From positions 70,429 through 134,428 of the IMG/VR virus record IMGVR_UViG_3300044624_002142: a stretch of DNA of 64,000 nucleotides. One strand, 5' to 3'. A program made the translations under genes and the position numbers. Source of the DNA: a virus. Within the stretch, counting starts at the first letter, position 1. Every line of letters starts with the position of its first letter. Positions 10,130 through 27,453 of the stretch are shown here, piece by piece. A model generated the notes under the pieces. That model ran no database searches, was not told the origin of the DNA, and worked only from the letters and a program-made list of their open reading frames with translations.

Positions 10130-10885
10130 ATGAAAAATATAATATTCACGCTCTTGTTTGGCTTTAATGTTTATGCTAATGGTGTTTTTTATGTTCAAAA
10201 AACAACAGGTGATGTTGTTTTAGAAAATGTGACAAATAATGTACTTTCAACGAATGCGCCGACCATTGGACAAACCTTTATGGTCAACGGTCAAAACTAT
10301 GCATTTAAAACATCAACAAATTCGGATGTAACTGTGGCATTTTCAAATGATGTCTTTGTTAAAATTAAAGAATCAACTCATATTACCGTTGATAACTTTG
10401 ATCAAAGTTTCATTAATACAAATTCATTGCCCGAAAAGGCCAAGTATGAAACCTATTCCAAATCGGTATCGTTAATTGAAGGTGAACTTGATGTTTATTC
10501 CAATCAAGAAGGTAATTCTGAATCTATTGATAATATTAATACTAAACTTGCATCAATAATATTGTCAAAAGGTAAATTTGTAATACAGGCAGATGATCGA
10601 ACCACGGTTATTATTATTCTTGATGGATCCGCTGTTATTTTAGACAATTATTCCAAACGAAAAGAAAATGTTAAAGCTGGTCAAACCGTGGTAATTGTTC
10701 CTGCTCCAAAGTTTCAAGGTCGTGGTGTTGAAACTATGAGACGTGGCAATATTTTTTCAATTAAAGAAACTGTAAATGGTGATGCTGAATCATATCTATT
10801 AGGTGTAAATTCGGTTGTTGATGCTTCTAAAAATGTTAGATTTTGTATAATAGATAAAACCATCCGTGGTATTAAAATTAATTGA
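10130..10885 (+). CDS. Secreted FecR-like beta-domain protein
   Basis: Signal-peptide-like N-terminus; T..NS.VTVAFSNDVFVKIKEST.I, LIEGEL, INTKLASI..KG.F, ILDGSA, VKAGQ pattern. Confidence 0.55.
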   Translation: MKNIIFTLLFGFNVYANGVFYVQKTTGDVVLENVTNNVLSTNAPTIGQTFMVNGQNYAFKTSTNSDVTVAFSNDVFVKIKESTHITVDNFDQSFINTNSLPEKAKYETYSKSVSLIEGELDVYSNQEGNSESIDNINTKLASIILSKGKFVIQADDRTTVIIILDGSAVILDNYSKRKENVKAGQTVVIVPAPKFQGRGVETMRRGNIFSIKETVNGDAESYLLGVNSVVDASKNVRFCIIDKTIRGIKIN

Positions 10886-11153: not shown

Positions 11154-13697
11154 ATGTATCAAAACATTTATATAGATAAGAAAACAGAAACAGTGCACCT
11201 TTGGGATGACCAGAAGGGACATGTTACATTTCCAGTTCCTAAGTATGCGTATCGTAAGAAGTCAGGTGGACGTTATCGTTCTGTTTACGGGGATGAACTA
11301 GAAAAGGTTACAAACTTTAACCGTAATGATCCTTCAATCTTTGAAGGTGATGTTCCTCCCGAAACACGGGTGTTGATTGACGCGTACGAAAACAGTGATG
11401 AACCGTCCAAAGGACATCGTATTGTCTTTTTTGACATTGAGGTTAGTTCCGAAGGTGGATTTCCCGTTATTGAGGAGGGTGATAAGGAACTCACCGCTAT
11501 TGCTTTGTACGATAGTGCTACATCCAAGTACACGGCGTTTATTTTGGATAAAGATGGCAAACTTCAAGACAGTGAAACAACAGATACAAGTATTCAAAGT
11601 TTTGACAATGAGGAATCATTAATTAGTCATTTTATGAATAAGTGGGAGGAAATCCAACCCACGATTATTACTGGATGGAATATTGATGGGTTCGACGTTC
11701 CATATCTGTATAATCGTATCAAGAGAGTGATGGGTGCCAATTTTGCTAAAAGATTGAGTCCGATTCGGGAATGTTATTATAATAACTTTGCAAAACGAAT
11801 GGTTTTAGCTGGTATTTCATGTATGGACTATATTACATTGTATCAGAAGTTTAGTGGAAAAAATGAACCAAGTTATACTCTTGGTGCTATCGGTAAGAAG
11901 GTGGTCAATATCGACAAGATCACTTATACCGGAAGCCTTAATGATTTGTATCGTGATGACATTCAAAAGTATATTGAATACAACCTTAATGACGTTAAGA
12001 TTGTGGTTGCTCTTGATAAGAAGTTACAATTCATTGATCTTGCTCGTCGTATCTGTCACACCGGGCATGTTGGTTATGAACAATTTGGAACTTCATCACG
12101 ATACCTTGAAGGTGCCATATTGATGTATTTGCGTCGTCAAGGACGTGTTGCTCCGAATAAACCATTAGATGGACGTGAAGAATATGAACAACAATTGGAA
12201 GACGGAGAAGAAGGATTTGAAGGTGCGTTTGTTAAACCTCCTGTGCCTGGTAGGTATGATTGGGTGTTTGATTTGGATCTTACATCAATGTATCCGAATA
12301 TCATTATTAGTCTTAACATTAGTCCTGAAACTAAAATAGCTAAAGTTGAAAACTGGAATGCAGAAGACTTTGTTCGTGGCAAGTTGACAGATGTAGTATT
12401 AAGCGGACAAAAGTATTCATCACAAGAATTCAGTGACATGTTGATTCAAAATAATCTTAGTGTCGCTAGTAATGGAGCTGTCTATAAACTTCCAAAAGGA
12501 GACGGACAAGAAGGTACGATTCCTAGTATTTTGATCAAGTGGTTTAATGAACGTAAAGAAATGCGTAAGTTGGCCAAGAAGCACGCTGATGCAAAGGAAT
12601 GGGAATTGTATGAGTTTTATGATCAACGTCAGAAAGTTCAAAAGATTTTGCTAAACTCCATTTATGGTTGTTTGGGTCTGCCAGTATTTCGATTTTATGA
12701 TAAGGATAATGCTGAAGCAGTAACATTGAGTGGTGTCAGTATCATTAAGACTGCAAATATGGCCATCAACCAATATTATAAGAATGTTCTTGGTGATGAA
12801 GCAAAAGGTAAGGATTATGTTATTTACGTTGATACCGATTCTTGTTTTACTAGTGCTTTGCCTATTATTAAGAAAACGATGCCTGACATTGATGTAAATG
12901 ACGAAAAACAAATGACCGAAGCTATTCTGAAAGTTACTGCAGAAGCTCAAACATATGTTAACCAAATGTTTGATATTATGGCTCTTCGATTATTTAACGT
13001 AAAACAACATCGTTTTGATGCAAAACAAGAAGTAATCGCCAAGTCGTCGTTTTGGTTGGCTAAGAAACGTTATTGTCAGTTCATTATTAATAAGGGTGGG
13101 GTTGAATGTGATGAACTTGAGGTCAAGGGAATTGACGTGGTGAGAACATCCTTTCCTGCCAAGTTTAGAACTTTCATGAAACAATTCTTGATTGATTTGT
13201 TGAAAAACGTTGATCAAGAAACTATCAACAACAATATTCTTCAGTTTACAGAAGATATGAAGAACTTTGGAGTGATTGAACTTGCTAAAAATACAAGTGT
13301 GAAGTTCAAGAGCGAAAAGACTAAAGCTGATTATAATCCAAAGAGTCGTCAACCATTTCAGATTGTTTCTGGAACTCCTGCCCAAGTTAAGGCAGCGTTG
13401 TATTACAACGATTTGTTGGCACAGTTTAATTTGACCAAGATTATTCCTCCGATATTTCATGGTCAGAAAATTAAGTGGGTATATCTTAAACAGAATGAAT
13501 ATGGAATTGAATGTTTGGCGATGAAAGCAGATGGAACTGATCCTCAACAAATTATGGATATTATTACAAAATATATGGATCGTGATACTATGTATGAACA
13601 AGAGTTGAAGAGTAAACTTGTTGATTTCTATAAAGTTTTGAACTGGGAATATCCTAATTCAAACTGGAAAGCTGCATCTGCATTTTTTGAATTTTAA
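11154..13697 (+). CDS. polB: Family B DNA polymerase (T4 gp43-like) with 3'-5' exonuclease
   Basis: FFDIE, GWNIDGFD, YNLND, DLTSMYPNII, QKILLNSIYG, YVDTDS, KKRY, VKGID. Confidence 0.97.
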   Translation: MYQNIYIDKKTETVHLWDDQKGHVTFPVPKYAYRKKSGGRYRSVYGDELEKVTNFNRNDPSIFEGDVPPETRVLIDAYENSDEPSKGHRIVFFDIEVSSEGGFPVIEEGDKELTAIALYDSATSKYTAFILDKDGKLQDSETTDTSIQSFDNEESLISHFMNKWEEIQPTIITGWNIDGFDVPYLYNRIKRVMGANFAKRLSPIRECYYNNFAKRMVLAGISCMDYITLYQKFSGKNEPSYTLGAIGKKVVNIDKITYTGSLNDLYRDDIQKYIEYNLNDVKIVVALDKKLQFIDLARRICHTGHVGYEQFGTSSRYLEGAILMYLRRQGRVAPNKPLDGREEYEQQLEDGEEGFEGAFVKPPVPGRYDWVFDLDLTSMYPNIIISLNISPETKIAKVENWNAEDFVRGKLTDVVLSGQKYSSQEFSDMLIQNNLSVASNGAVYKLPKGDGQEGTIPSILIKWFNERKEMRKLAKKHADAKEWELYEFYDQRQKVQKILLNSIYGCLGLPVFRFYDKDNAEAVTLSGVSIIKTANMAINQYYKNVLGDEAKGKDYVIYVDTDSCFTSALPIIKKTMPDIDVNDEKQMTEAILKVTAEAQTYVNQMFDIMALRLFNVKQHRFDAKQEVIAKSSFWLAKKRYCQFIINKGGVECDELEVKGIDVVRTSFPAKFRTFMKQFLIDLLKNVDQETINNNILQFTEDMKNFGVIELAKNTSVKFKSEKTKADYNPKSRQPFQIVSGTPAQVKAALYYNDLLAQFNLTKIIPPIFHGQKIKWVYLKQNEYGIECLAMKADGTDPQQIMDIITKYMDRDTMYEQELKSKLVDFYKVLNWEYPNSNWKAASAFFEF

Positions 13698-13742: not shown

Positions 13743-14642
13743 ATGAGTGATTTTACGTTTATAATTCAAGGACCATACAACACTACACATTTATTGATGT
13801 TAGGTAACCTTAAAAAAGAAGGAAAAGTTGTTTTGTCATGTTACATGTCTGATTTAGATAAAATTTCTGACCCAAGTGTGTATGACATGATAATACTCAA
13901 TGATATTATCGATACCAATATAGAGAAAATTTACAATTATGATAACGTATATCATCAAGTGAGATCCACGAAAAGAGCATTGTGTTCTATAAACACTGAA
14001 TATGCTGTTAAGTTCAGATCTGACTCTTTTTATTCCGGAATACCATATGTAGTAGATTCTATAAGAAAAAACTCAGAAAAGTTATCATGTGTGCCCATCA
14101 ATATTAATCCAGTATGGCCATATCAGTTTTGTGACCATGTAATGGGTGGACGAACTAAAAATTTGAAGGATACATTTGAAATAGCAGAGTCTATAATATT
14201 AACTCAAGACTTTATTTATGATGAAATTGATACTAGATTATGTCCTGTAGTATTACTTTTTGCATCTTGGCTTAAAAGTAAGAACATAAAAGGTGATGAA
14301 CCTATATTTAGTTATTGGATTAAAGATTTTTATGGTACCGATCCTAGAATGGCATGGAGTCCAGACAACAAAATAAGTGTTATGGTATATCAGAACTATT
14401 TTGATACTGTAGTAAATAACTTAAACATACTAGATATATATAATATGGAACCGTTTTTTGCTAAAAGCAACACTGTTAAAAAAACATTCACTAAAGCAAT
14501 AGATGCGATATCATGGCATGACAGTGTGTGTAAAACCGGACATAAAATGCGTGATATGAATTCATATATAAAAGCATTTTATGAATGTCATTCTGATAAA
14601 ACTAAAAACTTTATTAAACCAGTAACACACTATATAAAATAA
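13743..14642 (+). CDS. WavE-like LPS/glycan modification protein (copy 1)
   Basis: TFIIQGP, VVLSCY, NVYHQVRST..AL, YAVKFRSD, FCDHVMGG. Confidence 0.6.
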   Translation: MSDFTFIIQGPYNTTHLLMLGNLKKEGKVVLSCYMSDLDKISDPSVYDMIILNDIIDTNIEKIYNYDNVYHQVRSTKRALCSINTEYAVKFRSDSFYSGIPYVVDSIRKNSEKLSCVPININPVWPYQFCDHVMGGRTKNLKDTFEIAESIILTQDFIYDEIDTRLCPVVLLFASWLKSKNIKGDEPIFSYWIKDFYGTDPRMAWSPDNKISVMVYQNYFDTVVNNLNILDIYNMEPFFAKSNTVKKTFTKAIDAISWHDSVCKTGHKMRDMNSYIKAFYECHSDKTKNFIKPVTHYIK

Positions 14643-14645
14643 ACT

Positions 14646-15854
14646 ATGAATAAAAAAGTTATAAACGACATAGTATTGGTATCAAGTACAAATAATAACA
14701 ACGGTAACATTGTCACATACGATGTTAAATCAAAAACTAATCTTTGGGATGCTGCATATGCAATTGCAGTTGGACAGAGTGTTGGTAATCCTGAAAAAAG
14801 ATCTGAGTTTGAGTCTCGGGAATTGTTTGAAACGTATTGTGCAAAGATAATTGATACCAATAATTTTTCTGAAAAAGAAGGGTTGATTAATATCTATTAT
14901 CCTGACAATAATTTCAACTACAAGGAAGATGGAATTACTCATTTCTTGACCACAATTATGGGTGGACAACTTGATATCGATATTATTCAGAAATGTCGAA
15001 TTACAAATATTGAATTTTCAAAAGAGTTTGATCAGATATTCAATGGACCAAACTTGGGTCTAAAAGAAATGAGAAAATACTGTGGTGTAGATGAAAACTA
15101 TCCTTTATTTGGCGGAATTATAAAGCCAAAAATTGGTTTGAATGTTAAAGATTATGTTGAGGTTGTAAAGATTTACGCCGATAACGGATGTAACTTCATA
15201 AAAGAAGATGAAATTCTTTCCAATCAGTCATTTTGTTCTATAGAAAAACGACTTGAGAAGATTGGTGATTATCTCAGAACTAATAACATCAAAATGGTAT
15301 ATGCACCATCTATAACTTGTGATCATTTATATTTAGAGGATCGTATTCGTAAAGTACATAACTTAGGTATCAACGGACTTCATATCAACATTCATAGCGG
15401 ATATGGTGCGTATAAAATGGTTAAGGATTTAAGATTGAATTTGTATCTTCATTATCAAAAGAGCGGAGATAAGATGTGGACAAATCCTCAACACAATTAT
15501 TCTATCGACGAATCTGTTTTGTTTGAGATCGCAAGTCGATGTGGATGTTCTACTCTTCATGTTGGTATGATTGGTGGATATTTGGATAGTGATGAAGATA
15601 GTTTGGTTCGAACAATTAATAAGTTAGTATCATTAAATTCTGTTTCAGCATTGAGTTGTGGAATGCATCCCGGATTGGTTCAATATATTATTAATAAGTT
15701 GGGCCATTGTAATTGGATGGCTAACGTTGGTGGCGCTATATCGTCACATCCGATGGGGAGTGCAGCTGGAGTTCGTGCAATGAAACAGTCGATTTCTGGA
15801 GAACATGGTAAGGAATATCGTAATGCAATTAAAACATGGGGACTTAAATCTTGA
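14646..15854 (+). CDS. RuBisCO-like protein (form IV RLP)
   Basis: GQSVG, GP.LG, GGIIKPKIGL, NFIKEDE, LHVG, LSCGMHPG, VGGAISSHPMG..AG..AM; lacks the loop-6 Lys. Confidence 0.92.
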   Translation: MNKKVINDIVLVSSTNNNNGNIVTYDVKSKTNLWDAAYAIAVGQSVGNPEKRSEFESRELFETYCAKIIDTNNFSEKEGLINIYYPDNNFNYKEDGITHFLTTIMGGQLDIDIIQKCRITNIEFSKEFDQIFNGPNLGLKEMRKYCGVDENYPLFGGIIKPKIGLNVKDYVEVVKIYADNGCNFIKEDEILSNQSFCSIEKRLEKIGDYLRTNNIKMVYAPSITCDHLYLEDRIRKVHNLGINGLHINIHSGYGAYKMVKDLRLNLYLHYQKSGDKMWTNPQHNYSIDESVLFEIASRCGCSTLHVGMIGGYLDSDEDSLVRTINKLVSLNSVSALSCGMHPGLVQYIINKLGHCNWMANVGGAISSHPMGSAAGVRAMKQSISGEHGKEYRNAIKTWGLKS

Positions 15855-15856
15855 GT

Positions 15857-16573
15857 ATGAATGTTGTTATACCAGCTGCTGGATTGGGTACTAGGTTTAA
15901 TACCACAATTCCAAAACCATTGTTGGATGTTAATGGATTGCCGATGTTAGCTAGAGTTATAAATAACTTTTATAATAGTGATGTAAAGTTTTTTGTATGT
16001 ATTCTTAAAGAACATCAACAGAAATTTAATATTATAGATAATGTAAAAGACTACTGTGATACATCGATGGTTAAATATTTTATTATTGATGAACTGACAG
16101 ATGGGCCGGCAAGAACATCATATTTTTCAAAACCACATATTAATATTAATGAACCGTTGATTATAACAAACTGTGATCAGGTTATTTTTGACTTAGACTT
16201 AAATCGATTGATGTCTTTTGCCGAAAAGAATTCGGCAGATGGTGTACTTGGTACGTTTTATTCAAATAGTCCTAAAAACAGTTACGTTAGACTAAATGAT
16301 GACGGATTAATTACACAAGTTAAAGAAAAAGAAGTAATAAGTAATTATGCTACCAATGGTCTTCATTTTTGGACAAAAGGATCTTCTTTCTTTGATTCGT
16401 GTGATGAAATGTTTTCACGAAACGACAGATCAAACAATGAGTTTTATGTTGCACCAAGTTATAACTATATGATAAAAAAAGGAATGAAAGTAGTTCAGTA
16501 TTTTTTCAATGAACACTTTCCTATTGGAATACCACAAGATTTAGATAAATTTAGAAAGTTAAATTATATATGA
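15857..16573 (+). CDS. Sugar-phosphate nucleotidyltransferase (NTP_transferase/GT-A)
   Basis: VVIPAAGLGTRF, PKPLLDV.G.PM, ITNCDQ, EKEVIS, NEFYVAP.YN. Confidence 0.85.
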   Translation: MNVVIPAAGLGTRFNTTIPKPLLDVNGLPMLARVINNFYNSDVKFFVCILKEHQQKFNIIDNVKDYCDTSMVKYFIIDELTDGPARTSYFSKPHININEPLIITNCDQVIFDLDLNRLMSFAEKNSADGVLGTFYSNSPKNSYVRLNDDGLITQVKEKEVISNYATNGLHFWTKGSSFFDSCDEMFSRNDRSNNEFYVAPSYNYMIKKGMKVVQYFFNEHFPIGIPQDLDKFRKLNYI

Positions 16574-17205
16574 ACAAACAATTACAAAATGATTTTGTAC
16601 GATACACTTCCAATGGACAATTGATTCTATCCGAATACCACTGCGGTCCCGGATCTACGTTATGGTATACACGTCCTATTAGAAGTGTATTTGTAGAGTT
16701 TTTAAAAAAACACAATATTAACAGTATGTTAGATGCTCCATGTGGAGATCATCAATGGATGAGTTTAATAAAGTTCCCAAATGAATTTGATTATATTGGA
16801 GGAGATCTTCATGAAGATATGATTTCTAGAAATAACAATATATATGGAAACAAATTTATTCAACTTGATATTACCGAAGATCAATTACCTTCAAAAGATT
16901 TGATTTTTGTGAGAGATTGTTTGTTTCATCTTACCGATGATATGAAAAGAAAGTTTTTTAGTAATTTATTGAAAACAGACTTTAAGTTTTTACTTACATC
17001 AAATCATCCAAGATGTAATATTAATGTTCCTAATATTATAAACGGTGAAACGTTTCAAGAAATTAATTGGAATATTTCCCCTTGGAATTTCCCAACTCCA
17101 ATTGATACTATCGTGGATTATAATGAATCTGATGATAGATTTAATCCATATCCATATCGAACAATGGAACTTTGGTCTAAAGAACAACTCGAAACAATTT
17201 TATAA
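16570..17205 (+). CDS. Class I SAM-dependent methyltransferase-like protein
   Basis: GPGST, SMLDAPCGD, YIGGD, DLIFVRDCLFHL. Confidence 0.7.
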   Translation: MNKQLQNDFVRYTSNGQLILSEYHCGPGSTLWYTRPIRSVFVEFLKKHNINSMLDAPCGDHQWMSLIKFPNEFDYIGGDLHEDMISRNNNIYGNKFIQLDITEDQLPSKDLIFVRDCLFHLTDDMKRKFFSNLLKTDFKFLLTSNHPRCNINVPNIINGETFQEINWNISPWNFPTPIDTIVDYNESDDRFNPYPYRTMELWSKEQLETIL

Positions 17206-17210
17206 ATGAT

Positions 17211-17537
17211 ATGCGAGTATTTGATTCTAAACCATTTATGGATAAAGGTGGTTGGTTTATTGGAGATTTTGAACCAACAGTGTTTAAAACCACATCATTT
17301 GAGGTATCATATAAACTTCATCATAAAGGAGAAGATTGGCCAAAACACTATCATAAGATAAGTGAAGAAATAAACTTTCTAATTCGTGGAAAAATGACTA
17401 TTAATAATACAGTTATTGATGCAGGAACCATATTTATCATTGACAGATATGAATCTGTAAAACCTATATTCTTAGAAGATTGTGAACTAATTGTTGTAAA
17501 GGTTCCATCTTCAAAGAATGACAAATACGAAAATTAA
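17211..17537 (+). CDS. Cupin-fold protein
   Basis: GWFIGDFEP, HYHKISEEIN, VVKVPS. Confidence 0.75.
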   Translation: MRVFDSKPFMDKGGWFIGDFEPTVFKTTSFEVSYKLHHKGEDWPKHYHKISEEINFLIRGKMTINNTVIDAGTIFIIDRYESVKPIFLEDCELIVVKVPSSKNDKYEN

Positions 17538-17539
17538 TT

Positions 17540-18172
17540 ATGTTTACGATAGATCAAAATTTATATACTCAGACCCCATCCAATATCAATGGACTTTCTT
17601 ATCTTCCATCTTTCAAAAATGAAGCTGATAACGATGTTGATTGGCCAGGACATATTGCACCATTTAATGAAATTATAGAGGAAATCACTGATGCTAATAA
17701 AGAAGCATTGGATGATATATTGAGTAAGGTTAATGTAAAAAATGTTATTGAAATTGGTATTGCTCGTAATAATAAAAGATCGTTTACTACACAATTACTT
17801 TACGCCAAAAAAGGTATTTATTGTGGTATTGATCTTGATGACAAGACTTTTTTGAATGATGATTTGAATCGTGTATACACAATCAAAGCTAATTCACATG
17901 ATCAGGTAAATATACGTTCTTATTTAAATACCATCGGACTTCATAAGTGTTCAGTGTTGTTTATCGATGGATGGCATTCAGTGAATACTGTTATTAATGA
18001 CTGGACATATACTGACTTACTTGATGATAAAGGTGTAGTTATTTTTCATGATACTAACTATCATCCGGGACCAAATCTTGTTGTACCAGCAGTTGATCGA
18101 TCTATGTATAGAGTTGTAAAGTATTGTGATGGAGGATCTGATTGGGGTATTGCTGCCGCATACAAACTGTGA
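17540..18172 (+). CDS. Class I SAM methyltransferase (Methyltransf_24-like)
   Basis: VIEIGI, LFIDGWHS, GVVIFHDT, WGIA. Confidence 0.7.
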   Translation: MFTIDQNLYTQTPSNINGLSYLPSFKNEADNDVDWPGHIAPFNEIIEEITDANKEALDDILSKVNVKNVIEIGIARNNKRSFTTQLLYAKKGIYCGIDLDDKTFLNDDLNRVYTIKANSHDQVNIRSYLNTIGLHKCSVLFIDGWHSVNTVINDWTYTDLLDDKGVVIFHDTNYHPGPNLVVPAVDRSMYRVVKYCDGGSDWGIAAAYKL

Positions 18173-18198
18173 AGGATCTAATATTACAAAATTAGTTT

Positions 18199-18960
18199 AT
18201 GAATATAGCAATTATCATTTCTGGAAGAATAGATTTGTTTGAACAATCAGTTTTTGAAAATTATAATAATATAATTAATCCATTAATTAACAATGGACAC
18301 ACAGTAAATATTTTCATGTCTATATGGAATCATCATGATCAAGATATGTTGTTAAGAGCATATCAACCATATGTAAAAGTTTTTGATACTGAAACTTTTA
18401 CTGATTATACAGCTGGATTGATAAAGGATATGGTTCCGTATGAAATTCTTGTAAAGTTATTTGGTCATTCTGAAGAAAATAAAGTTTCTAATACACTATA
18501 CTGGATGTATAAATTAAAGCGTGCATATAAATTTGTAAAGGAATATGAACGTGTTAATAATATTGAACATGATTTGTACATTCGATTAAGACCCGATGTA
18601 ACATGTTGTGATCCTATTGATATACATCAACTTACTACGTTGAATGATTCATCAATTATAGTTCATGTAGATCACATTTTGGTAAAAGATGATAAATTTT
18701 ATGGATGTGGAGAAGGTTGGATCGATGATAATTTATGTATTGCAAAACAACGACCATTTGAAACATTTTGTAATACATATGACGATATAATAAATTTATG
18801 TTTAATGACCGGATCTTGTATATCACATATATTGTTACAAAAACAATTTGAATTAAATAATATAAAAACAATAAGACCTAATTCTCCATTAATTATTTAT
18901 CGAAAAGGTGATATTAATAATCCTGTTTTAAAATTTTATCATTTTGAACATTGTTATTAA
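18199..18960 (+). CDS. Putative glycosyltransferase-like protein
   Basis: MNIAIIISGR, IFMSIW, HDLYIRLRPD pattern seen in glycan-cluster proteins. Confidence 0.5.
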   Translation: MNIAIIISGRIDLFEQSVFENYNNIINPLINNGHTVNIFMSIWNHHDQDMLLRAYQPYVKVFDTETFTDYTAGLIKDMVPYEILVKLFGHSEENKVSNTLYWMYKLKRAYKFVKEYERVNNIEHDLYIRLRPDVTCCDPIDIHQLTTLNDSSIIVHVDHILVKDDKFYGCGEGWIDDNLCIAKQRPFETFCNTYDDIINLCLMTGSCISHILLQKQFELNNIKTIRPNSPLIIYRKGDINNPVLKFYHFEHCY

Positions 18961-18970
18961 ATGTACTTTT

Positions 18971-20338
18971 ATGATAAAATTAATTGTTTTTGATTTAGAC
19001 GGTGTTTTGGTTGAAACTAAAAAACTTCACTATGATGCTTTAAATAAAGCGTTACGTGATGTCGATCCAAAGTATGAGATTTCATACGATGAACATCTTG
19101 CTAAGTATGATGGACTTAGTACTCATAAAAAATTAGATTTACTTGGTCGTGAAAAAGGATTATCTGGAATGGAGTTTGAAAGTGTATGGTTTCGTAAACA
19201 AGTATACACCTCACAAATGTTACGTGAATTGACTCCGGATACAAGACTTATAGAAGTTCTCCGAAAGTTAAAACAAAAATATACTATTGCTGTTGCTAGC
19301 AATAGTATTCGTGATAGTGTTAAAATAACTCTACTAAAGTTGGGGTTATTGGAATACGTTGATTTTTATTTGTCTAATGAAGATGTAAAACATCCAAAAC
19401 CACATCCTGAGATCTATTTGAGATCAATGATTCAATCAGGTGCAACACCAAAAGAAACCATTATAATTGAAGATAGTGTTATTGGACGTAATGCTGCAAA
19501 CAATAGTGGTGCTTATTTACTGGGAGTAAATAATCCAACAGATGTAACGTATGAAAATATTACGGAACATATAGATTGTATCAATAAAAATACTAAAAGA
19601 CCAAAATGGCAAGGAGGAAAAATGAATGTTTTAATACCAATGGCAGGCGCAGGTAGTCGATTTGAAAAGGCTGGATATACATTTCCTAAACCTTTGATTG
19701 ATGTACGTGGAAAGCCCATGATTCAATGGGTAGTTGACAATTTGAACGTAGACGCCAAGTATATTTTTATTGTTCAGAAAAGTCATTTTGAAAAGTACAA
19801 CCTTAAAGATACACTTGATAATTTCTGTCCAAATAATAAAATTGTTCAGATTGAAGGAATTACCGAAGGTGCTGCTTGTACGACACTATTAGCAAAACAA
19901 TATATTAATAAGGATGAACCTTTGATTATTGCCAACAGTGATCAATTTGTTGAGTGGAATAACGAAGAGTTTATTTATACATCTACCACTGGAGATTTAG
20001 ATGGTAATATTCTTACGTTTAAATCTACACACCCCAAGTGGAGTTATGCAAAAATCAATGAATTAGGATATGTGACTGAAGTTGCTGAAAAACGTCCTAT
20101 AAGTGATATTGCGACTGTAGGCATATACTATTGGAGAAAGGGCAGTGACTATGTTAAGTATGCTGAACAAATGATTCAAAAGAACATTCGTGTCAACAAT
20201 GAATTTTATGTGTGTCCGGTCTTCAATGAAGCCATTTCTGACGGTAAAAAGGTTCGTACATTTAATATTGAAAAGATGTGGGGTCTTGGAACCCCTGAAG
20301 ATTTAGAAAATTTTTTAAAAAATTACGAAAAACATTAA
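18971..20338 (+). CDS. HAD phosphatase / nucleotidyltransferase fusion
   Basis: N-terminal FDLDGVL, ASNS, KPHPEIY, IEDS; C-terminal LIPMAGAGSRF, PKPLIDV, ANSDQ, NEFYV. Confidence 0.88.
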   Translation: MIKLIVFDLDGVLVETKKLHYDALNKALRDVDPKYEISYDEHLAKYDGLSTHKKLDLLGREKGLSGMEFESVWFRKQVYTSQMLRELTPDTRLIEVLRKLKQKYTIAVASNSIRDSVKITLLKLGLLEYVDFYLSNEDVKHPKPHPEIYLRSMIQSGATPKETIIIEDSVIGRNAANNSGAYLLGVNNPTDVTYENITEHIDCINKNTKRPKWQGGKMNVLIPMAGAGSRFEKAGYTFPKPLIDVRGKPMIQWVVDNLNVDAKYIFIVQKSHFEKYNLKDTLDNFCPNNKIVQIEGITEGAACTTLLAKQYINKDEPLIIANSDQFVEWNNEEFIYTSTTGDLDGNILTFKSTHPKWSYAKINELGYVTEVAEKRPISDIATVGIYYWRKGSDYVKYAEQMIQKNIRVNNEFYVCPVFNEAISDGKKVRTFNIEKMWGLGTPEDLENFLKNYEKH

Positions 20339-20340
20339 AT

Positions 20341-21129
20341 ATGCTCGGTGATTTTACATTTATAATTCATGGAAATTATGATGAAACGCACATTCCTATG
20401 TGTGCCGAATTAAAACGATTTGGTAAAGTCATATTATCGACCAATAAAAAATATATGGACCATGTTTCACAACATGCAAATCATTATGATAAAATAATAT
20501 GTGAATCGGATATAGATGTTACCAATATATACAATCATCAGAATATCTATCTTCATATCAACTCAGTATTAAATGGATTGCGTCAGTGTGATACTCAATA
20601 TGTTGTAAAAGTTAGAACAAATCATTGTTATTCAAATATTCAATATCTTGTAAATAAAGTAAGATCAAATATAAATGATAAATATTTGTGTAGTAATATT
20701 GCTGTAAATCCAGAATTTCCATATCATCCATGTGATAATATTATTGCTGGAACTAAAGAATTGGTTTTTTCTATATACAAAACAGCTTATAGTAGTATAT
20801 TAGCTGAAGATTTTATATATCAAGACAATGATATACGAATGTGTGCTGAAGTTTTATTGTTCATTTCATATCTTAAATATAAAAACATTAAAATAAATAA
20901 AATCAATGGAAACTCATATTTTTATGTTGATGGTATAAGAAATGGTATGGTAATTCATGGTTACATTAGTGATCAATACAGATCTATAATGAAAGAAAAT
21001 TTAGAATTAATTGACGTTGAGAATTTAGCACCATATGTTATAAATTTTAATAGTCATACATTTGATGTTATTTTTAGAAATATTAAAAATGTGGATGAAC
21101 TATTAAGTAAAACAAATTTGAACTTTTAA
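20341..21129 (+). CDS. WavE-like protein (copy 2, paralog of 13743-14642)
   Basis: DFTFIIHG, IYNHQNIY, YVVKVR, PYHPCD, DFIY...D.RMC.EVLLF.SYLK.KNIK shared with copy 1. Confidence 0.55.
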   Translation: MLGDFTFIIHGNYDETHIPMCAELKRFGKVILSTNKKYMDHVSQHANHYDKIICESDIDVTNIYNHQNIYLHINSVLNGLRQCDTQYVVKVRTNHCYSNIQYLVNKVRSNINDKYLCSNIAVNPEFPYHPCDNIIAGTKELVFSIYKTAYSSILAEDFIYQDNDIRMCAEVLLFISYLKYKNIKINKINGNSYFYVDGIRNGMVIHGYISDQYRSIMKENLELIDVENLAPYVINFNSHTFDVIFRNIKNVDELLSKTNLNF

Positions 21130-21145
21130 GTAAAACGAATTGTGT

Positions 21146-21607
21146 ATGAAATACATCTCTCATAGAGGCAATCTAAGTGGTCCAAATTCAGACAAAGAAA
21201 ATCATCCCGATTATATTAAAAAAGCATTAAAATTGGATTATGATGTTGAAATTGACGTGTGGTATACTGATGAAAAGTGGTATTTGGGACACGATAGTCC
21301 AACGTATCAAGTAAAATATGATTTTCTAACAGATCGAAGATTTTGGTTACATGCCAAAAATGGTGATGCATTTAATTTGTTGGTACAAGACTATACAGTA
21401 AATGTATTTTGGCATACCACTGAAGATTGGGTTTTAACCAGCAAGAGATTTATATGGACGTATCCTGGCAAGCAATTATATCCTGAAAGTGTGTGTGTTT
21501 TGCCAGAACACTCATGGGTGGGAGATCTTACAAAATGCCACGCAGTATGTACTGACTTTGTAAAAGAATTTCCAGAACAGTTTGAGGAAGAATACTGGAT
21601 AAATTAA
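21146..21607 (+). CDS. GDPD/PLC-like phosphodiesterase-fold protein
   Basis: ISHRGN, EN, DVEIDVW, LGHD, WLHAKN, VCTD. Confidence 0.7.
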   Translation: MKYISHRGNLSGPNSDKENHPDYIKKALKLDYDVEIDVWYTDEKWYLGHDSPTYQVKYDFLTDRRFWLHAKNGDAFNLLVQDYTVNVFWHTTEDWVLTSKRFIWTYPGKQLYPESVCVLPEHSWVGDLTKCHAVCTDFVKEFPEQFEEEYWIN

Positions 21608-21658: not shown

Positions 21659-22402
21659 ATGACAAAGACAAATCTACAAAAATTCATTAACAAATACTCT
21701 CTTAATGGAGAGGTACCATCAGTCAAGTGGAACGTTTCCGCTAAAAACAAGCAACTCAGTTTGAGTGCTATTACTAACGATAAGAGTTTGATTTATGACG
21801 TTACTTGGAAGAACGTTGAAGAATTGAACGCCGAATATGAGATCGGTGTTTATGACACTGACAAGTTGCAGAAGATGTTGAAGGCTCTAGGTGAAGAAAT
21901 TACCATGACCGTCAATGAAACTGATGGACGGGTTACATCTCTTTCATTCTCCGATGGAACATCTGAAATTCAGTTTATGACCGCTGAATTGACAGTAATT
22001 CCCAAGTCTTCTCGTCTCAAGTCTACACCTCCATATCATTTTGAAATTGATCTTACAGAGGAATTTATCGCTAAGTATCGTAGTGCGAAGGATGCTCTTT
22101 CTGAAGAGAGTAAGTTTACATTGTTGATGAACAAGAAGAGTAAGAAGGTTCAGTTGGTTCTTGGCTATGCTTCAATCAATAGTAACCGTGTTACTTTGGA
22201 TGTTCCTATCAAGGATGGAACAGCTAAGTTGGAAAAGCCTTTGAATTTCAACGCTGATTTCTTCAAGTCGGTGTTGGATGCAAACAACGAGTGTGAAAAT
22301 GCTGTGTTGAAGGTGTCTGAAGCCGGATTGGCGTCAGTTGAATTTAATACTGATACATTTTCTGCTACGTATCACTTTGGTCCGGTCCAACCTAACGAAT
22401 AA
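21659..22402 (+). CDS. DNA sliding clamp (T4 gp45-like)
   Basis: About 250 aa, EIGVYDTDKLQKML motif, adjacent to clamp loader and near polB. Confidence 0.65.
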   Translation: MTKTNLQKFINKYSLNGEVPSVKWNVSAKNKQLSLSAITNDKSLIYDVTWKNVEELNAEYEIGVYDTDKLQKMLKALGEEITMTVNETDGRVTSLSFSDGTSEIQFMTAELTVIPKSSRLKSTPPYHFEIDLTEEFIAKYRSAKDALSEESKFTLLMNKKSKKVQLVLGYASINSNRVTLDVPIKDGTAKLEKPLNFNADFFKSVLDANNECENAVLKVSEAGLASVEFNTDTFSATYHFGPVQPNE

Positions 22403-22407
22403 TTCAT

Positions 22408-23376
22408 ATGGATGCCTTTTTTGAAGAGGTGAGTCATACCGACGATAAGAAGGTTCATAGTTTGTGGGTTGAAAAGTATCGACCCACAATTATTGAAGAT
22501 TATATCGGAAATGAAAACATCATAACCACAATTAAGAGTTATATTGACCAGCAGAACATTCCACATTTGATGTTGTATGGCGGTGCTGGTACTGGAAAGA
22601 CAACGTTGGCTAAACTGTTGACTAAACAGATCAACTGTGATGTATTGTATATCAACGCATCTGATGAAAATAAGGTTGAGAATGTTCGAACCAAGATTAA
22701 GAGTTTTGCATCATGTGTGGGTATCAAACCGCTGAAGATTATTATTCTGGACGAGTGTGATTATATGTCACCAGAGGCACAAGCGGCTCTTCGTAACCTT
22801 ATGGAGACGTTTAGTATGTCTACGAGGTTTATTCTGACATGTAACTATCATGAGAAGATGATTCTTCCCATTGTATCACGTTGTATGACCTTTGAGATTG
22901 CTCCGATGACTAAGGTTTCGGTTGCGGTACATTTGACTAAGATTCTTAAGTCAGAAAACGTTGAATATCAGAATGATGATTTGGCGTATATCGTAAACAC
23001 ATATTATCCGGATATTCGTAAGATTATTAATGTGGCACAACAATCTACTTTTGAAGGTAAGTTGAAGGTTAATAAGGATTCTTCGTTGAAAACTGACACA
23101 CATCAAAAGTTGGTGGACATGATTAAGAATGGTATTGGTAAGCCAAATGCCTTTAATGATATTCGACAATTTGTTGTGGATCAGCGTATCAAAGTGTATG
23201 ATGATTATTTCTCAGTGTTGTATCAGAAGGTTGATGATTATGCTAATGGTAAGCAGGCAATAGCTACGATTATTATCTCTGAGTATATGTATCAATGTAG
23301 TTTGTTGATTCCTCCATTGAAAGAAATTGCTTTGATGGCATGTATTAGTAAACTTTTAACAGATTTGAGAAAATGA
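22408..23376 (+). CDS. Clamp loader AAA+ subunit (RFC small/gp44-like)
   Basis: LWVEKYRP, GAGTGKTT, INASDE, ILDECD, SRC motif. Confidence 0.95.
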   Translation: MDAFFEEVSHTDDKKVHSLWVEKYRPTIIEDYIGNENIITTIKSYIDQQNIPHLMLYGGAGTGKTTLAKLLTKQINCDVLYINASDENKVENVRTKIKSFASCVGIKPLKIIILDECDYMSPEAQAALRNLMETFSMSTRFILTCNYHEKMILPIVSRCMTFEIAPMTKVSVAVHLTKILKSENVEYQNDDLAYIVNTYYPDIRKIINVAQQSTFEGKLKVNKDSSLKTDTHQKLVDMIKNGIGKPNAFNDIRQFVVDQRIKVYDDYFSVLYQKVDDYANGKQAIATIIISEYMYQCSLLIPPLKEIALMACISKLLTDLRK

Positions 23377-24403: not shown

Positions 24404-24988
24404 ATGGGAATGTATGATGACATAGTATGTAAATACCCTCTTCCTTTACCAGAAGATACTAAAGGATTTCACCCATGTGGATTTCAAACCAAAGATTTAG
24501 ATAATGCTTTAGATTGTTATGAAATCCGTGAAGATGGCACACTATGGTTGCGTGAATGTGAACGTGAATATACTGAAGGCAATCCGGATGGTAAAACATG
24601 GTCAGAAAAGTTTGGTATTGTAAAAGAAATCAAAGTTTGGTGGACTCATGTAAAAACAACCAGAACCATACGTATCTATGATTATAACAATTATAATGAT
24701 GGACCATATGACTATTGGGTTGAATTTGAAATTGAATTTGTTGACGGCGTTATTAACAAGATTAACCTTGTAAAGTTTGAAGCCACTGATAACGCTAAAA
24801 GAAAAGAAAATGATAGACGATTCATTGAAGAACTTAAAAAGAACAAAGAGTTTGAATCTACTAATTTTTATAAATTACTAATCAAACCATATAACAAAGT
24901 AGTTAGATTTTGGACAAGACAAGTGAGTAAATTTGCCACTCTTTTGTTAAGTGTTTGTTATAAGATTGAAAGAAAACTGGTTATATGA
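24404..24988 (+). CDS. Conserved phage hypothetical protein
   Basis: MGMYD.I.C...FQTKDLD.ALD.Y.I..DG.L pattern. Confidence 0.6.
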   Translation: MGMYDDIVCKYPLPLPEDTKGFHPCGFQTKDLDNALDCYEIREDGTLWLRECEREYTEGNPDGKTWSEKFGIVKEIKVWWTHVKTTRTIRIYDYNNYNDGPYDYWVEFEIEFVDGVINKINLVKFEATDNAKRKENDRRFIEELKKNKEFESTNFYKLLIKPYNKVVRFWTRQVSKFATLLLSVCYKIERKLVI

Positions 24989-27453
24989 ATTTGAAAATGT
25001 TTGATATTTTGCCGGAATATATTCAGTGTATGAACCAGACCGATGGTGTTTGTTATATATACCAGTCGGGTGTTAGTGGCTATGCTAATGCAGCTAAAGG
25101 TTATATCTATGATTTATTAAAAAAAGTAAACGTAGTTACTAAACCGTGCGAATTTGATCAAACTCATGTAATTGAGTCTGGAGAGTTTGAACAAACAATT
25201 AAAACACTTACAAATAACAATGTTGTATATAAAAATATAATTGTTCATTCTACACCGGACATGTGGGATTATTTGATTGATAAGACCGAAGTTAAAATTC
25301 ATAATCGAAATATCATTGGTAGAACTGTTTGGGAGTTTGATCCTCTTATTCCAAATTGGGTAAATGCAATAAACAAAAGCATTGTAAAAATTGTTAGTGT
25401 TCCTACAGAATGGAACAAACAGGTTTTTGAACGTAGCGGAGTTACAAAACCTATTATTGTTGAACCACATATAAATGTTACGTTTCCATATACTAAGGTT
25501 GATTTAAAGAAACTAATTGAAGATAAAGGAGAAGTCCTTTACAATGGAGATTTTTCTCAATTTGATTTACAATCATCATATAAGTTTTATACCATCGGTC
25601 AATATATTACACGTAAAGGAATATCAGAAACAATAAAAGCGTATTGTGAATCGTTCAATCAGACTGATACCGTAATACTGTTTGTTAAAACGTTTGGGTT
25701 TGATTATTCAGAGTTACAGAAAGAGGACTGTAGACGGAAAATTAAAAATATAATTGGAGAATCGAATGTTCCTCCGATTGTTTTTTTGAAAGAAATGTTC
25801 ACTTATGATGAAATACAATCTCTTCATGAACAATGTGATTGTTATGTGCAGTTAACACGATCTGAAGGTGTAGGTTTAGGAATTTTTGAAGCGTACAATA
25901 GAGGAAAAAAAGTTATTGTTACAAACCATGGTGGTCATGTTGAGTTTCTTCCGAATAATTATGAAGGGTTGGTTGATTGTGAATTGGTACCCGTAAAAGA
26001 TAGTATATTTTACAATCTCGATCTCGACAAAACATATCTTTGGGCAAAACCTTCGATTAAACATGCTGTAGAAAAGATTAAAATTATGGCTGACATTAGT
26101 AGTACAGTTAGTCATATGACCAATAATACACCATTTCCACTAATTTTAAATAGTGGATGGTATGATTTAGAATTATATCAAAATGTCCACTTCAGATGGA
26201 TGCATCTGAAATCATCTATTGACGTTATTGATAATAATGATTATGATTCGGTAACACTAGTTTTTGGTAACCATGTAAATCGAAAAACAATAAAATCATA
26301 TGTAGTATCATCTCATGACGAATCAAAAACTCTTGTATCAGAAAAAGTATGTGAAATTGGAGAACAATGTTATATACGTATACCGTTGGTCAATACAAAA
26401 CAAATATTGATTGAGAGTGATTCTTATTACTGTCCGTATGAAAGTGGAAACAGTGAAGATCGTCGAAAATTATCAATCATGATGTTTAAATTTGAATTTG
26501 AAAAAAATAATAATCATTTTATACAATCTATAGAGAGTGTTACTCATATAAAAGACAATTCACATTTTCAAATTACATTTGATAGTCATGTAACAACAAA
26601 TACTAACGCACATTTTGAATATGACAGTGTTATACTACCAAATGTTAGTAGTAGAGTAACAAATGGAATTTTGTTGTATTTACCAAATCTTATTGGAAAA
26701 CACGCCAAAACTTTAGATAATCTAAGTCAATATAAACACTCTATTAACGATTCAAAAATCGTGGTGTATACAGATGGCAGTATAGATGGATTCGATAAAT
26801 ATCCTTTTGAATTTATACAGATTGATCCTTTACCAATAATGTATGACGGGATGATGCCTGTACATTACAAGTATGCTACATGGGCATTTTTTGAAGGAAT
26901 AAAGATCGCTAAGAGCAAAATGTGGGATTATTTTTTTTGTTACGAATGGGATTGTATGATAGGGAAAGACTATTGGTATGACACCTTGTGGCAAGAACAT
27001 TTGAGTTGGCCATATGAACCTATCATGACTGGTACACCTGTATTCAAATGTCCATTAAAAGGTGTTGGTAATTTGTTACAGGGATCAATGGATTATAGAT
27101 ACAAGTATTCCAAAGATTGTGGATTATACATGAATATAGAACATGTAAATCCTACTGCATTATATACAAATGGTGCATTAACTTTTTACAATACAAATAA
27201 TACCGCAAAATATTTTCAACCAGAACTTGAATTTTATGGAGATGTATCATCATATATGAATACAATAACCAGTTGGGACTTGGAAATTGGAATACGATTA
27301 TTCAAAGAATACGGAGAAAAATCGTTTGAAAAGGTTGGTTGGTTGCCATCGTCATACTCTGGATGTGGTGATTATTATTACAACCAAACACAAAGAGAAT
27401 TAATGATCGATACTGGACAAAAAGTAGTAATACACCAATATAAATATTTATGA
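24985..27453 (+). CDS. Multidomain glycosyltransferase (GT4 + beta-sandwich + putative second GT domain)
   Basis: SGYANAA, TVWE, RKG, RSEGVGLGIFEA; central GWY..E..FRW..D.RKL domain; C-terminal YEWD. Confidence 0.75.
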   Translation: MNLKMFDILPEYIQCMNQTDGVCYIYQSGVSGYANAAKGYIYDLLKKVNVVTKPCEFDQTHVIESGEFEQTIKTLTNNNVVYKNIIVHSTPDMWDYLIDKTEVKIHNRNIIGRTVWEFDPLIPNWVNAINKSIVKIVSVPTEWNKQVFERSGVTKPIIVEPHINVTFPYTKVDLKKLIEDKGEVLYNGDFSQFDLQSSYKFYTIGQYITRKGISETIKAYCESFNQTDTVILFVKTFGFDYSELQKEDCRRKIKNIIGESNVPPIVFLKEMFTYDEIQSLHEQCDCYVQLTRSEGVGLGIFEAYNRGKKVIVTNHGGHVEFLPNNYEGLVDCELVPVKDSIFYNLDLDKTYLWAKPSIKHAVEKIKIMADISSTVSHMTNNTPFPLILNSGWYDLELYQNVHFRWMHLKSSIDVIDNNDYDSVTLVFGNHVNRKTIKSYVVSSHDESKTLVSEKVCEIGEQCYIRIPLVNTKQILIESDSYYCPYESGNSEDRRKLSIMMFKFEFEKNNNHFIQSIESVTHIKDNSHFQITFDSHVTTNTNAHFEYDSVILPNVSSRVTNGILLYLPNLIGKHAKTLDNLSQYKHSINDSKIVVYTDGSIDGFDKYPFEFIQIDPLPIMYDGMMPVHYKYATWAFFEGIKIAKSKMWDYFFCYEWDCMIGKDYWYDTLWQEHLSWPYEPIMTGTPVFKCPLKGVGNLLQGSMDYRYKYSKDCGLYMNIEHVNPTALYTNGALTFYNTNNTAKYFQPELEFYGDVSSYMNTITSWDLEIGIRLFKEYGEKSFEKVGWLPSSYSGCGDYYYNQTQRELMIDTGQKVVIHQYKYL

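Follow-up and report, generated by a model that had tools for sequence, protein, structure and literature searches.

The virus record IMGVR_UViG_3300044624_002142 encodes a RuBisCO-like protein (RLP) within an island of ten genes, located at positions 13743-21607 of the 64,000-nt window that we analysed (the window is the whole stretch of DNA under study; it lies inside a 126-kb record with a CheckV completeness of 40%). In related loci the RLP is accompanied by a nucleotidyltransferase (NTP-transferase), a small cupin and a miniature GDPD-like phosphodiesterase, and these four genes form the conserved unit. We propose that the RLP-led cassette makes and activates an unusual sugar phosphate for a glycan, with the RLP as front-end enzyme, direct activation by the NTP-transferase, and finishing by glycosyltransferases (GTs) and methyltransferases; we put the probability of this reading at roughly 55%. 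The four core genes of the island are:

14646..15854, + strand: g2, predicted non-carboxylating RLP ('form IV-like'), 402 aa, with domains PF00016 and PF02788
15851..16573, + strand: g3, 4EVW-like sugar-phosphate nucleotidyltransferase, 240 aa
17211..17537, + strand: g5, small metal-site cupin, 108 aa
21140..21607, + strand: g10, miniature GDPD-like phosphodiesterase, 155 aa

The linkage census covered 111 RLP loci, namely the window, 16 loci from IMG/VR, 14 from GTDB genomes and the best 80 of at least 366 metagenomic relatives. The GTDB loci include Pelagibacter, Saccharibacteria, Beckwithbacteria, Patescibacteria, Verrucomicrobiae, Planctomycetales, Saprospirales, Crocinitomicaceae and Phycisphaerales. 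Hidden Markov models (HMMs) of the partners were built from the first 30 loci, and a gene was counted as a partner if it lay within 4 kb of the RLP. At least 1.5 kb was available on both sides of the RLP at 71 usable loci (the window, 14 viral, 11 genomic and 45 metagenomic). The 4EVW-like NTP-transferase is found at 70/71 of these, at a median distance of 332 nt, with locus L027 as the sole exception. The cupin is present at 61/71 (median distance 20 nt) and the g10 family at 58/71 (313 nt), while 50 of the 71 loci have all three partners. The window's own g10 does not count as present, its distance of 5.3 kb from the RLP exceeding the 4-kb limit. The linkage extends to gene fusion: in P0121 (817 aa) and P0122 (813 aa), RLP, NTP-transferase and cupin form one chain; identity to g3 is 29% in the NTP part (4e-23), and identity to g5 is 35% and 43% in the two cupin parts (2e-20 and 4e-26). 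L016 encodes an NTP-transferase-cupin fusion.

These counts and fusions identify RLP, NTP-transferase, cupin and mini-GDPD as the conserved unit, rather than RLP, cupin and HAD. The first-pass annotation, made from the letters of the window, had envisaged a unit of RLP, cupin, HAD, NTP-transferase and WavE proteins. Its cupin and NTP-transferase components are borne out by the census and the two triple fusions; a HAD gene is found at only 8/111 loci and a WavE-like gene at 7/111. WavE proteins, which it had cast as the transferases of the unit, are thus rare partners, and the GT-A fold family that includes g7 (DUF7796-like) is the commonest transferase partner (40/111). The GDPD-like gene, which it had left outside its mechanism, is instead a core member. 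The gene-neighbourhood search that it had suggested shows that RLP, NTP-transferase, cupin and GDPD-like genes do co-occur in other genomes.

Around the core, the loci carry a varied set of accessory genes, including GT2, GT10-, GT11- and GT17-like transferases, FkbM, TylF and sugar C-methyltransferases, and UDP-GlcNAc 2-epimerase. The g6-type methyltransferase (18/111) is the largest non-core neighbour cluster. Gmd-like dehydratases are present at 20/111 loci and score 311-340 bits with TIGR01472, against a cut-off of 415. No kinase was found among the 40 neighbour families run against Pfam, and the 126-kb record, at 40% completeness, has no member of the PGM_PMM, GHMP, PfkB, RpiB or RibB families. 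Some loci depart from the usual arrangement. In a Planctomycetales metagenome-assembled genome (MAG; L033:8058-11967), the RLP lies between divergent NTP-transferases and is also preceded by a PF14907 'uncharacterised nucleotidyltransferase', and there is no cupin or g10. In the complete genome of a Pelagibacter sp., a D-isomer-specific 2-hydroxyacid dehydrogenase (L025:6680-7681; 5.6e-42) lies two genes upstream of a cupin-less g10-NTP-RLP cassette, and a HAD-NTP fusion 54% identical to g8 of the island is found 5 kb further off.

The first-pass label of g2 as an RLP stands. Both Pfam domains of the RuBisCO large-subunit superfamily are found above their gathering scores, PF00016 at 6.5e-28 (98.3 bits, cut-off 30.1) and PF02788 at 1.3e-5 (25.8 bits, cut-off 20.7). 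We mapped the active site by HMMER alignment to Thermococcus kodakarensis RuBisCO and by columns invariant in 20 clade members; residues are given in spinach RuBisCO numbering, with the g2 equivalents in brackets. Retained and invariant in the 20 members are K175/K177 (K160/K162), K201-D203-E204 (K186, D188, E189), H327 (H305), S379 (S337), G381 (G339) and G403/404 (G362/363). The replacements of N123 by G107, H294 by Q271, R295 by K272, H298 by D275 and K334 by Y312 are likewise invariant in these members, and the N-domain region of E60, T65 and W66 is replaced by GQSxGNP. In bona fide RuBisCO, N123, H294, R295 and K334 are part of the full catalytic set. Because K201-D203-E204 and the other residues listed are kept while N123, H294, R295 and K334 are lost, g2 is predicted to hold a carbamyl-Lys/Mg2+ centre that is competent for enolisation and has neither the carboxylation nor the cleavage residues.

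Every NCBIfam equivalog scored for g2 is far under its cut-off. A bona fide RuBisCO of forms I-III is rejected on the loss of the catalytic set and on a score of 150.4 bits with TIGR03326 (form III; cut-off 497), and OiaX (3-oxo-isoapionate-4-phosphate decarboxylase) on 98.2 bits with NF042437 (cut-off 700). The two MtnW models, NF007095 (124.6 bits, cut-off 409) and TIGR03332 (98.1 bits, cut-off 513.6), fall similarly short, and g2 is not MtnW. With the co-occurrence of the genes in other genomes, neither of the outcomes that would have refuted the first-pass annotation was seen.

By sequence similarity, the closest relatives of g2 lie on phage contigs (16 IMG/VR loci) and in the Beckwithbacteria MAG L029 (42% identity). 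There were 2426 RuBisCO-superfamily proteins at E ≤ 0.001, and each of the 120 best listed has an identity of at least 45%. A metagenome scan returned at least 596 pattern matches, at least 366 of which encode RLP relatives. Among 50,697 isolate phage records the RLP had no match at 1e-5, so that no cultured RLP phage turned up. The clade is not rare, occurring in SAR11, in bacteria of the candidate phyla radiation (CPR) and in large aquatic phages.

What is probably the same clade has already been published. Jaffe, Castelle, Dupont & Banfield (Mol Biol Evol 2018/19, PMC6389311) described about 80 'form IV-like' phage RuBisCO homologues together with Beckwithbacteria relatives, and in the accessible part of the paper their function is called 'unclear'. 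Like g2, those proteins are divergent non-carboxylating homologues on myovirus-type contigs from many environments, with kin in Beckwithbacteria. The accessible part discusses lateral transfer and does not describe a nucleotidyltransferase-cupin-GDPD cassette or fusions (PMC6389311). The first-pass annotation was made unaware that phage RLPs had been reported. We found no paper on the RLP cassette or its function in the literature within reach, which excludes most subscription journals and supplements.

A new comparative clue is provided by parallel cassettes in which RpiB or RibB takes part. Marine Synechococcus myophages have homologues of g10 and of the cupin in glycan islands without an RLP. 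Bellamy and SynMITS9220M01 encode a fusion of RpiB (PF02502, 3.9e-32) with an NTP-transferase that belongs to the cassette subfamily (HMM 7e-70). Cupin, GT-A and g10 come next, and GenBank annotates the fusion as 'phosphatase'. IMG/VR contains 44 NTP-RpiB loci, and the 30 with flanks have a cupin in 30/30 cases, a GT-A gene in 30/30, g10 in 27/30 and an RLP in 0/30. Conversely, RpiB is found at 0/111 RLP loci. The cassettes Bellamy gp206-208 and SynMITS9220M01_192-195, which are uncharacterised, share with our island the NTP subfamily, the cupin family (41% identity), the GT-A and mini-GDPD genes and the gene order. They differ in that an RpiB domain replaces the RLP, and in having a PfkB-like kinase and a HAD gene upstream. 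We propose that RLP and RpiB represent a non-orthologous displacement at one and the same position.

Synechococcus phage S-SKS1 has a genuine RibB (PDB 3h07, 1.2e-47) joined to a member of the NTP subfamily. This protein (SWZG_00042, L116:6998-8425) is annotated solely as DHBP synthase and consists of a 4evw-like nucleotidyltransferase (residues 3-249) and RibB (255-448); three GT-A (DUF7796-like) genes lie before it. A GT-A gene is present in S-SKS1 and in 8/9 related IMG/VR loci with flanks. A TARA metagenome scaffold (L113:4927-8316) has the order NTP-cupin-RLP-g10 followed by a standalone RibB (HMM 1.2e-72), the sole RibB among the 111 RLP loci. In a quick IQ-TREE analysis of the NTP-transferases, the RibB fusion falls in the g3-type clade, HAD fusions and SAR11 sequences in a second clade, and RpiB fusions in a third.

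Of the other core proteins, g3 was labelled an NTP-transferase in the first-pass annotation, which PF00483 (5.9e-10) corroborates. It matches phrog_3980 (4.7e-52), its best PDB match is 4evw (6.3e-10), and its weak matches include HddC (NF049965, 9.3e-11; PDB 6jq8, 2.7e-5). The cupin label of g5 is likewise upheld, by an HxH...E...G metal motif (H37, H46, H48, E53 and G60, invariant in 13 sequences) and by phrog_24762 (1.6e-29), with Pfam matches under cut-off. Weak PDB profile matches of g5 are to small cupins, one of them named mannose-6-phosphate isomerase (7zvm, 7.4e-4). The L016 fusion, P0121 and P0122 mimic the architecture of ManC/AlgA (type II phosphomannose isomerase/GDP-mannose pyrophosphorylase), an NTP_transferase followed by a MannoseP_isomer (PF01050) cupin. 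A ManC/AlgA type was rejected for g3 and g5, as at E ≤ 0.01 PF01050 matches neither g5 nor L016 nor the fusion proteins. A role of g5 as acireductone dioxygenase (ARD) was rejected on the lack of an ARD match.

For g10, the GDPD-like label holds in part. The motif HRG..EN..ExD..HD (H8, R9, E20, N21, E37, D39, H51 and D52) is invariant in 11 sequences, and a profile match to the Pyrococcus GDPD (PDB 7e0v, E 0.004) covers the first 57 residues only. The structural model, with a predicted local distance difference test score (pLDDT) of 91.3, finds GDPDs as its best fold matches (E 4e-3), with TMq of just 0.31-0.39 against barrels of 217-253 aa, and there is no Pfam match to GDPD (PF03009). At best, g10 would be a truncated relative of the GDPD barrel.

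From the observed gene content, active-site pattern, linkage and fusions, we infer the following chemistry, directed at a glycan of the host envelope or the virion. The RLP would act first and enolise a ketose phosphate from central metabolism. The substrate would probably be a pentulose phosphate, for example ribulose 5-phosphate or the corresponding bisphosphate. Isomerisation by the RLP would give a phosphate ester, which the nucleotidyltransferase would couple to a nucleoside monophosphate, with no dedicated kinase or phosphohexomutase. The cupin g5 may contribute a further isomerisation or epimerisation. Transfer of the activated unit would fall to the GT-A (g7) and WavE-like (g1, g9) proteins and its methylation to g4 and g6, while g8 may supply a second activated sugar. 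We read the RLP as a front-end sugar-phosphate isomerase because it occupies the position of RpiB and has the same partners. A pentulose phosphate is favoured because RpiB and RibB both act on ribulose 5-phosphate and RuBisCO on its bisphosphate. The kinase- and mutase-free route is proposed because PGM_PMM, GHMP and PfkB are missing from the record and no kinase is seen among the neighbour families. MtnW illustrates that the RuBisCO fold can enolise beside a phosphate-bearing carbon, and interconversion of ketose-1-phosphate and aldose-1-phosphate is known from MtnA and ribose-1,5-bisphosphate isomerase. As a tentative and rather doubtful generalisation, the RLPs of phages and of SAR11/CPR may turn a pentulose phosphate into a rare sugar, ketol or branched-chain phosphate that the nucleotidyltransferase activates directly, without kinase or mutase, with RpiB and RibB as alternative feeders.

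Several points weigh against our proposal. The evidence consists of genes and models, from which a substrate, a product and an activity are no more than proposed, and the phosphodiesterase g10 is left without explanation in a nucleotide-sugar route. Kinases or mutases may sit elsewhere in the genome, given that the record is 40% complete, or come from the host. The Gmd-like genes at 20/111 loci could mean an ordinary GDP-hexose product. The cupin, in which Pfam shows no mannose-6-phosphate isomerase, is dispensable, since the SAR11-type loci L025, L028 and L030 do without it. In the parallel cassettes, the 30 RpiB-fusion loci are closely related, with 79-92% identity to the query, so that 30/30 overstates the number of independent observations. 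Among the RibB-fusion IMG/VR loci with flanks, both cupin and g10 are found at 0/9, so the back end is not uniform, and the quick tree places the RibB fusion on a long branch.

The order of reactions is one place where the evidence could be read differently. The RLP may act after activation, with a ketose or keto-sugar linked to a nucleoside diphosphate made first and the RLP enolising or epimerising the nucleotide-bound sugar, its retained P1 site holding the diphosphate. The fusion order RLP-NTP-cupin leaves the reaction order free, and the RpiB-transferase fusion is equally compatible with this sequence of events. We nevertheless consider it unlikely: we know of no RuBisCO-superfamily enzyme with a nucleotide-linked substrate, and although T65 and W66, the P1 partners in the N-domain, are replaced, there is no sign of room for a nucleotide in g2. 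A precedent in its favour is CDP-6-D-fructose, for which, according to the accessible part of the report, a ketose 6-phosphate is activated directly and the next enzyme works on an open-chain nucleotide sugar (PMC10918830).

The nature of the product is another such place. The first-pass annotation had allowed for a short acid, and the corresponding alternative is a phosphorylated ketol, acid or polyol with 3 to 5 carbons that is activated at its terminal phosphate and becomes a phosphodiester-linked decoration. The fusion of the NTP subfamily to RibB, which forms the four-carbon compound 3,4-dihydroxy-2-butanone 4-phosphate, would fit such a product, as would the RibB that follows the cassette in L113, the 2-hydroxyacid dehydrogenase beside one SAR11 cassette, and the presence in the core of a GDPD-like enzyme, whose fold acts on polyol phosphodiesters. 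However, the recognised partner transferases are of the GT-A type and not of known phosphotransferase folds, the core has no reductase, and H294, which serves C-C cleavage in RuBisCO, is lost, which makes a short product improbable in our view.

The island lies between replication genes. Ten + strand open reading frames (ORFs) are found at the coordinates 13743-21607 that the first-pass annotation had reported, with junctions ranging from -17 nt (overlap) to +26 nt (gap). The island starts 45 nt past polB and ends 51 nt before g11, and its G+C content is 0.29-0.32, against 0.34-0.35 in the flanks. The accessory and bordering genes are:

11154..13697, + strand: polB, family B DNA polymerase, left border, with tblastn matches in 2669 phage records
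13743..14642, + strand: g1, divergent WavE-like protein, 299 aa, accessory, putative transferase
16570..17205, + strand: g4, methyltransferase, 211 aa, accessory
17540..18172, + strand: g6, O-methyltransferase-like protein (Methyltransf_24/CmcI class), 210 aa
18199..18960, + strand: g7, predicted GT-A fold glycosyltransferase (DUF7796-like), 253 aa
18944..20338, + strand: g8, HAD (beta-PGM-like subfamily) fused to a second 4EVW-like nucleotidyltransferase, 464 aa, accessory
20341..21129, + strand: g9, second WavE-like protein, 262 aa, accessory
21659..22402, + strand: g11, probable gp45-like sliding clamp, 247 aa, right border
22408-23376: AAA+/DNA_pol3_delta2 clamp-loader-like protein, directly after g11

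The best tblastn match of polB is the PolB of Microcystis phage Mel-JY01 (44.7% identity over 100% of the query), confirming the left flank. In Mel-JY01 the g11 homologue begins 26 nt after polB; because it follows directly, we regard the ten genes as an insertion between polB and g11. The clamp label of g11 is a lead rather than a proof: it has no Pfam match, gp45-slide_C and PCNA are the closest named clusters in the Atlas (score 0.94), and its neighbour is clamp-loader-like, so that a gp45-like sliding clamp is probable. The close relatives L002 and L003 (polB 94% identical) have the same core at the same site with a different accessory mix. The best explanation of the island is an accessory glycan-biosynthesis insertion in the replication module of a T4-like phage.

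In L002 (400-2780), polB is split into two ORFs of 355 and 438 aa in different frames; the near-identical L003 has one intact ORF of 848 aa, which points to a frameshift or assembly error in L002. Just upstream of polB in the window lie a PD-(D/E)XK nuclease (9163-10080, - strand; 8.3e-19) and a FecR-domain protein (10130-10885, + strand; 3e-5), both kept in L003 and L004. Downstream, 3.4 kb from the island, an 822-aa protein (24985-27453, + strand) contains a GT1-family glycosyltransferase domain (PF00534, 5.2e-11). As this gene lies past the clamp and clamp-loader genes, the glycan genes of the phage are not limited to the island. A cyanophage host is unsupported, as no psbA was found in the 126-kb record, which is 40% complete.

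Among the accessory proteins, the WavE-like labels given to g1 and g9 are partly sustained. With PF07507 (WavE) they score below the cut-off of 27 (g1, E 0.0019, 18 bits; g9, E 4.4e-4, 20 bits), but in tblastn searches g1 matches L022 (3.9e-5) and g9 matches L021 (2.6e-7), two loci with true WavE proteins beside the cassette (the L022 protein matches WavE at 1.4e-52, 179 bits). The two proteins are paralogues with 36% identity. The PDB has no WavE structure. A single superfamily of WavE-like and DUF7796-like proteins was rejected, as hhalign aligns only a 15-column motif (probability 0.75%, E 0.075). The claim of two methyltransferases is secure for g4 (phrog_3382 'methyltransferase', 7.3e-38; Methyltransf_25, E 0.0031), which has no homologue among the other loci at 1e-6, and weak for g6 (Methyltransf_24, 1.9e-4).

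The protein g7 has no Pfam match and falls in Atlas clusters of viral 'capsular polysaccharide biosynthesis' and DUF7796. Its AlphaFold2 model, from a 32-row alignment, has a pLDDT of 91.0 and gives 429 Foldseek matches at E ≤ 1e-3, the best being the GT6 alpha-1,3-galactosyltransferase 2vxl (1.1e-7), BoGT6a and glycogenin (GT8), with TMq of about 0.5; D125, R131 and D133 are conserved. The earlier 'GT-like' label is thus made more precise, and by model and fold search we assign g7 as a GT-A fold glycosyltransferase. For g8, the description as a HAD-NTP-transferase fusion is supported by HAD_2 (3e-29) and PF00483 (4.7e-10), with PDB matches to 4evw (7.1e-21), beta-PGM (6.4e-16) and CbbY (2.7e-5). 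A true beta-phosphoglucomutase was rejected on a TIGR01990 score of 92.8 bits (cut-off 189.4). In an alignment with Lactococcus lactis beta-PGM, the equivalents of DxD, K145 and E169-D170 are retained, and the positions of R49, K117 and N118 are occupied by G, I and a gap region; these three are the distal-phosphate residues of beta-PGM. The HAD of g8 more likely serves a second activated sugar.

The position of the island between polB and the clamp and clamp-loader genes, and that of relatives' cassettes beside UvsX-like, DnaB-like and primase genes, might suggest that its products glycosylate phage DNA in a base hypermodification. Such a role is very unlikely, because the cassette also occurs in chromosomal glycan loci (Pelagibacter, Saccharibacteria, Beckwithbacteria, Verrucomicrobiae and others) beside GT2, WavE and methyltransferase genes, and because the sole thymidylate-synthase-family gene of the record looks like canonical ThyA (E. 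coli TS, 3.4e-58). The O-methyltransferases and fucosyltransferase-like GTs fit surface glycans. The thymidylate synthase (52971-54155, - strand) is 394 aa long and aligns with the 264-aa E. coli ThyA in two stretches, indicating an insertion of about 130 aa mid-protein.

That the RLP is an MtnW-like methionine-salvage or sulfur auxiliary gene unrelated to its neighbours is hardly credible: the weak MtnW match (NF007095, 3.6e-36) and the HAD and cupin partners, which recall MtnX and MtnD, are outweighed by the low scores given above, by a glycine at position N123, where MtnW has a catalytic lysine, by the lack of the IF-2B/MtnA, class II aldolase (Aldolase_II)/MtnB and ARD families in the 40%-complete 126-kb record, as the first-pass annotation had noted for salvage genes, and by the fusion and the 70/71 adjacency to a nucleotidyltransferase.

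The few reactions known for RLPs are catabolic or belong to salvage pathways. If our proposal is correct, an anabolic role in glycan synthesis would be a new function for the much-studied RuBisCO fold. Under the more doubtful generalisation given above, the cassettes would define a modular family, not described so far, whose nucleotide-activated building blocks derive from ribulose phosphates, with the mini-GDPD as a new accessory enzyme. The surface glycans of SAR11, CPR bacteria and aquatic phages shape phage-host recognition in oceans and lakes, and the question can be tested directly at the bench, with the triple fusions and with the culturable cyanophages in which the parallel RpiB cassette is found.

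Compared with characterised systems, the RLP resembles MtnW/YkrW, the 2,3-diketo-5-methylthiopentyl-1-phosphate enolase, in its RuBisCO fold, in a predicted chemistry limited to enolisation of a keto-phosphate, and in having HAD and cupin partners. In contrast, MtnW/YkrW has a different active-site set and is found with methionine-salvage genes, whereas the partner of our RLP is a nucleotidyltransferase, which suggests that the RLP pathway is anabolic. The HddC-type route, which leads from a ketose phosphate through an isomerase, phosphate handling and an NTP-transferase to a Gmd-like dehydratase, follows a similar logic. It uses a SIS isomerase and a kinase where the island has RLP and cupin, and all scores of the island proteins are far under the respective cut-offs.

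The CDP-6-D-fructose/CDP-6-D-glucitol pathway of the Campylobacter jejuni HS:5 capsule has a nucleotidyltransferase that acts directly on a ketose phosphate drawn from central metabolism (Ghosh et al. 2024, PMC10918830). As far as the accessible part of that report describes it, this pathway differs from the island in having no RLP, cupin or GDPD and in continuing with a reductase. The likeness, drawn by description, lies in the direct activation of a ketose phosphate, the step that we propose for the RLP cassette.

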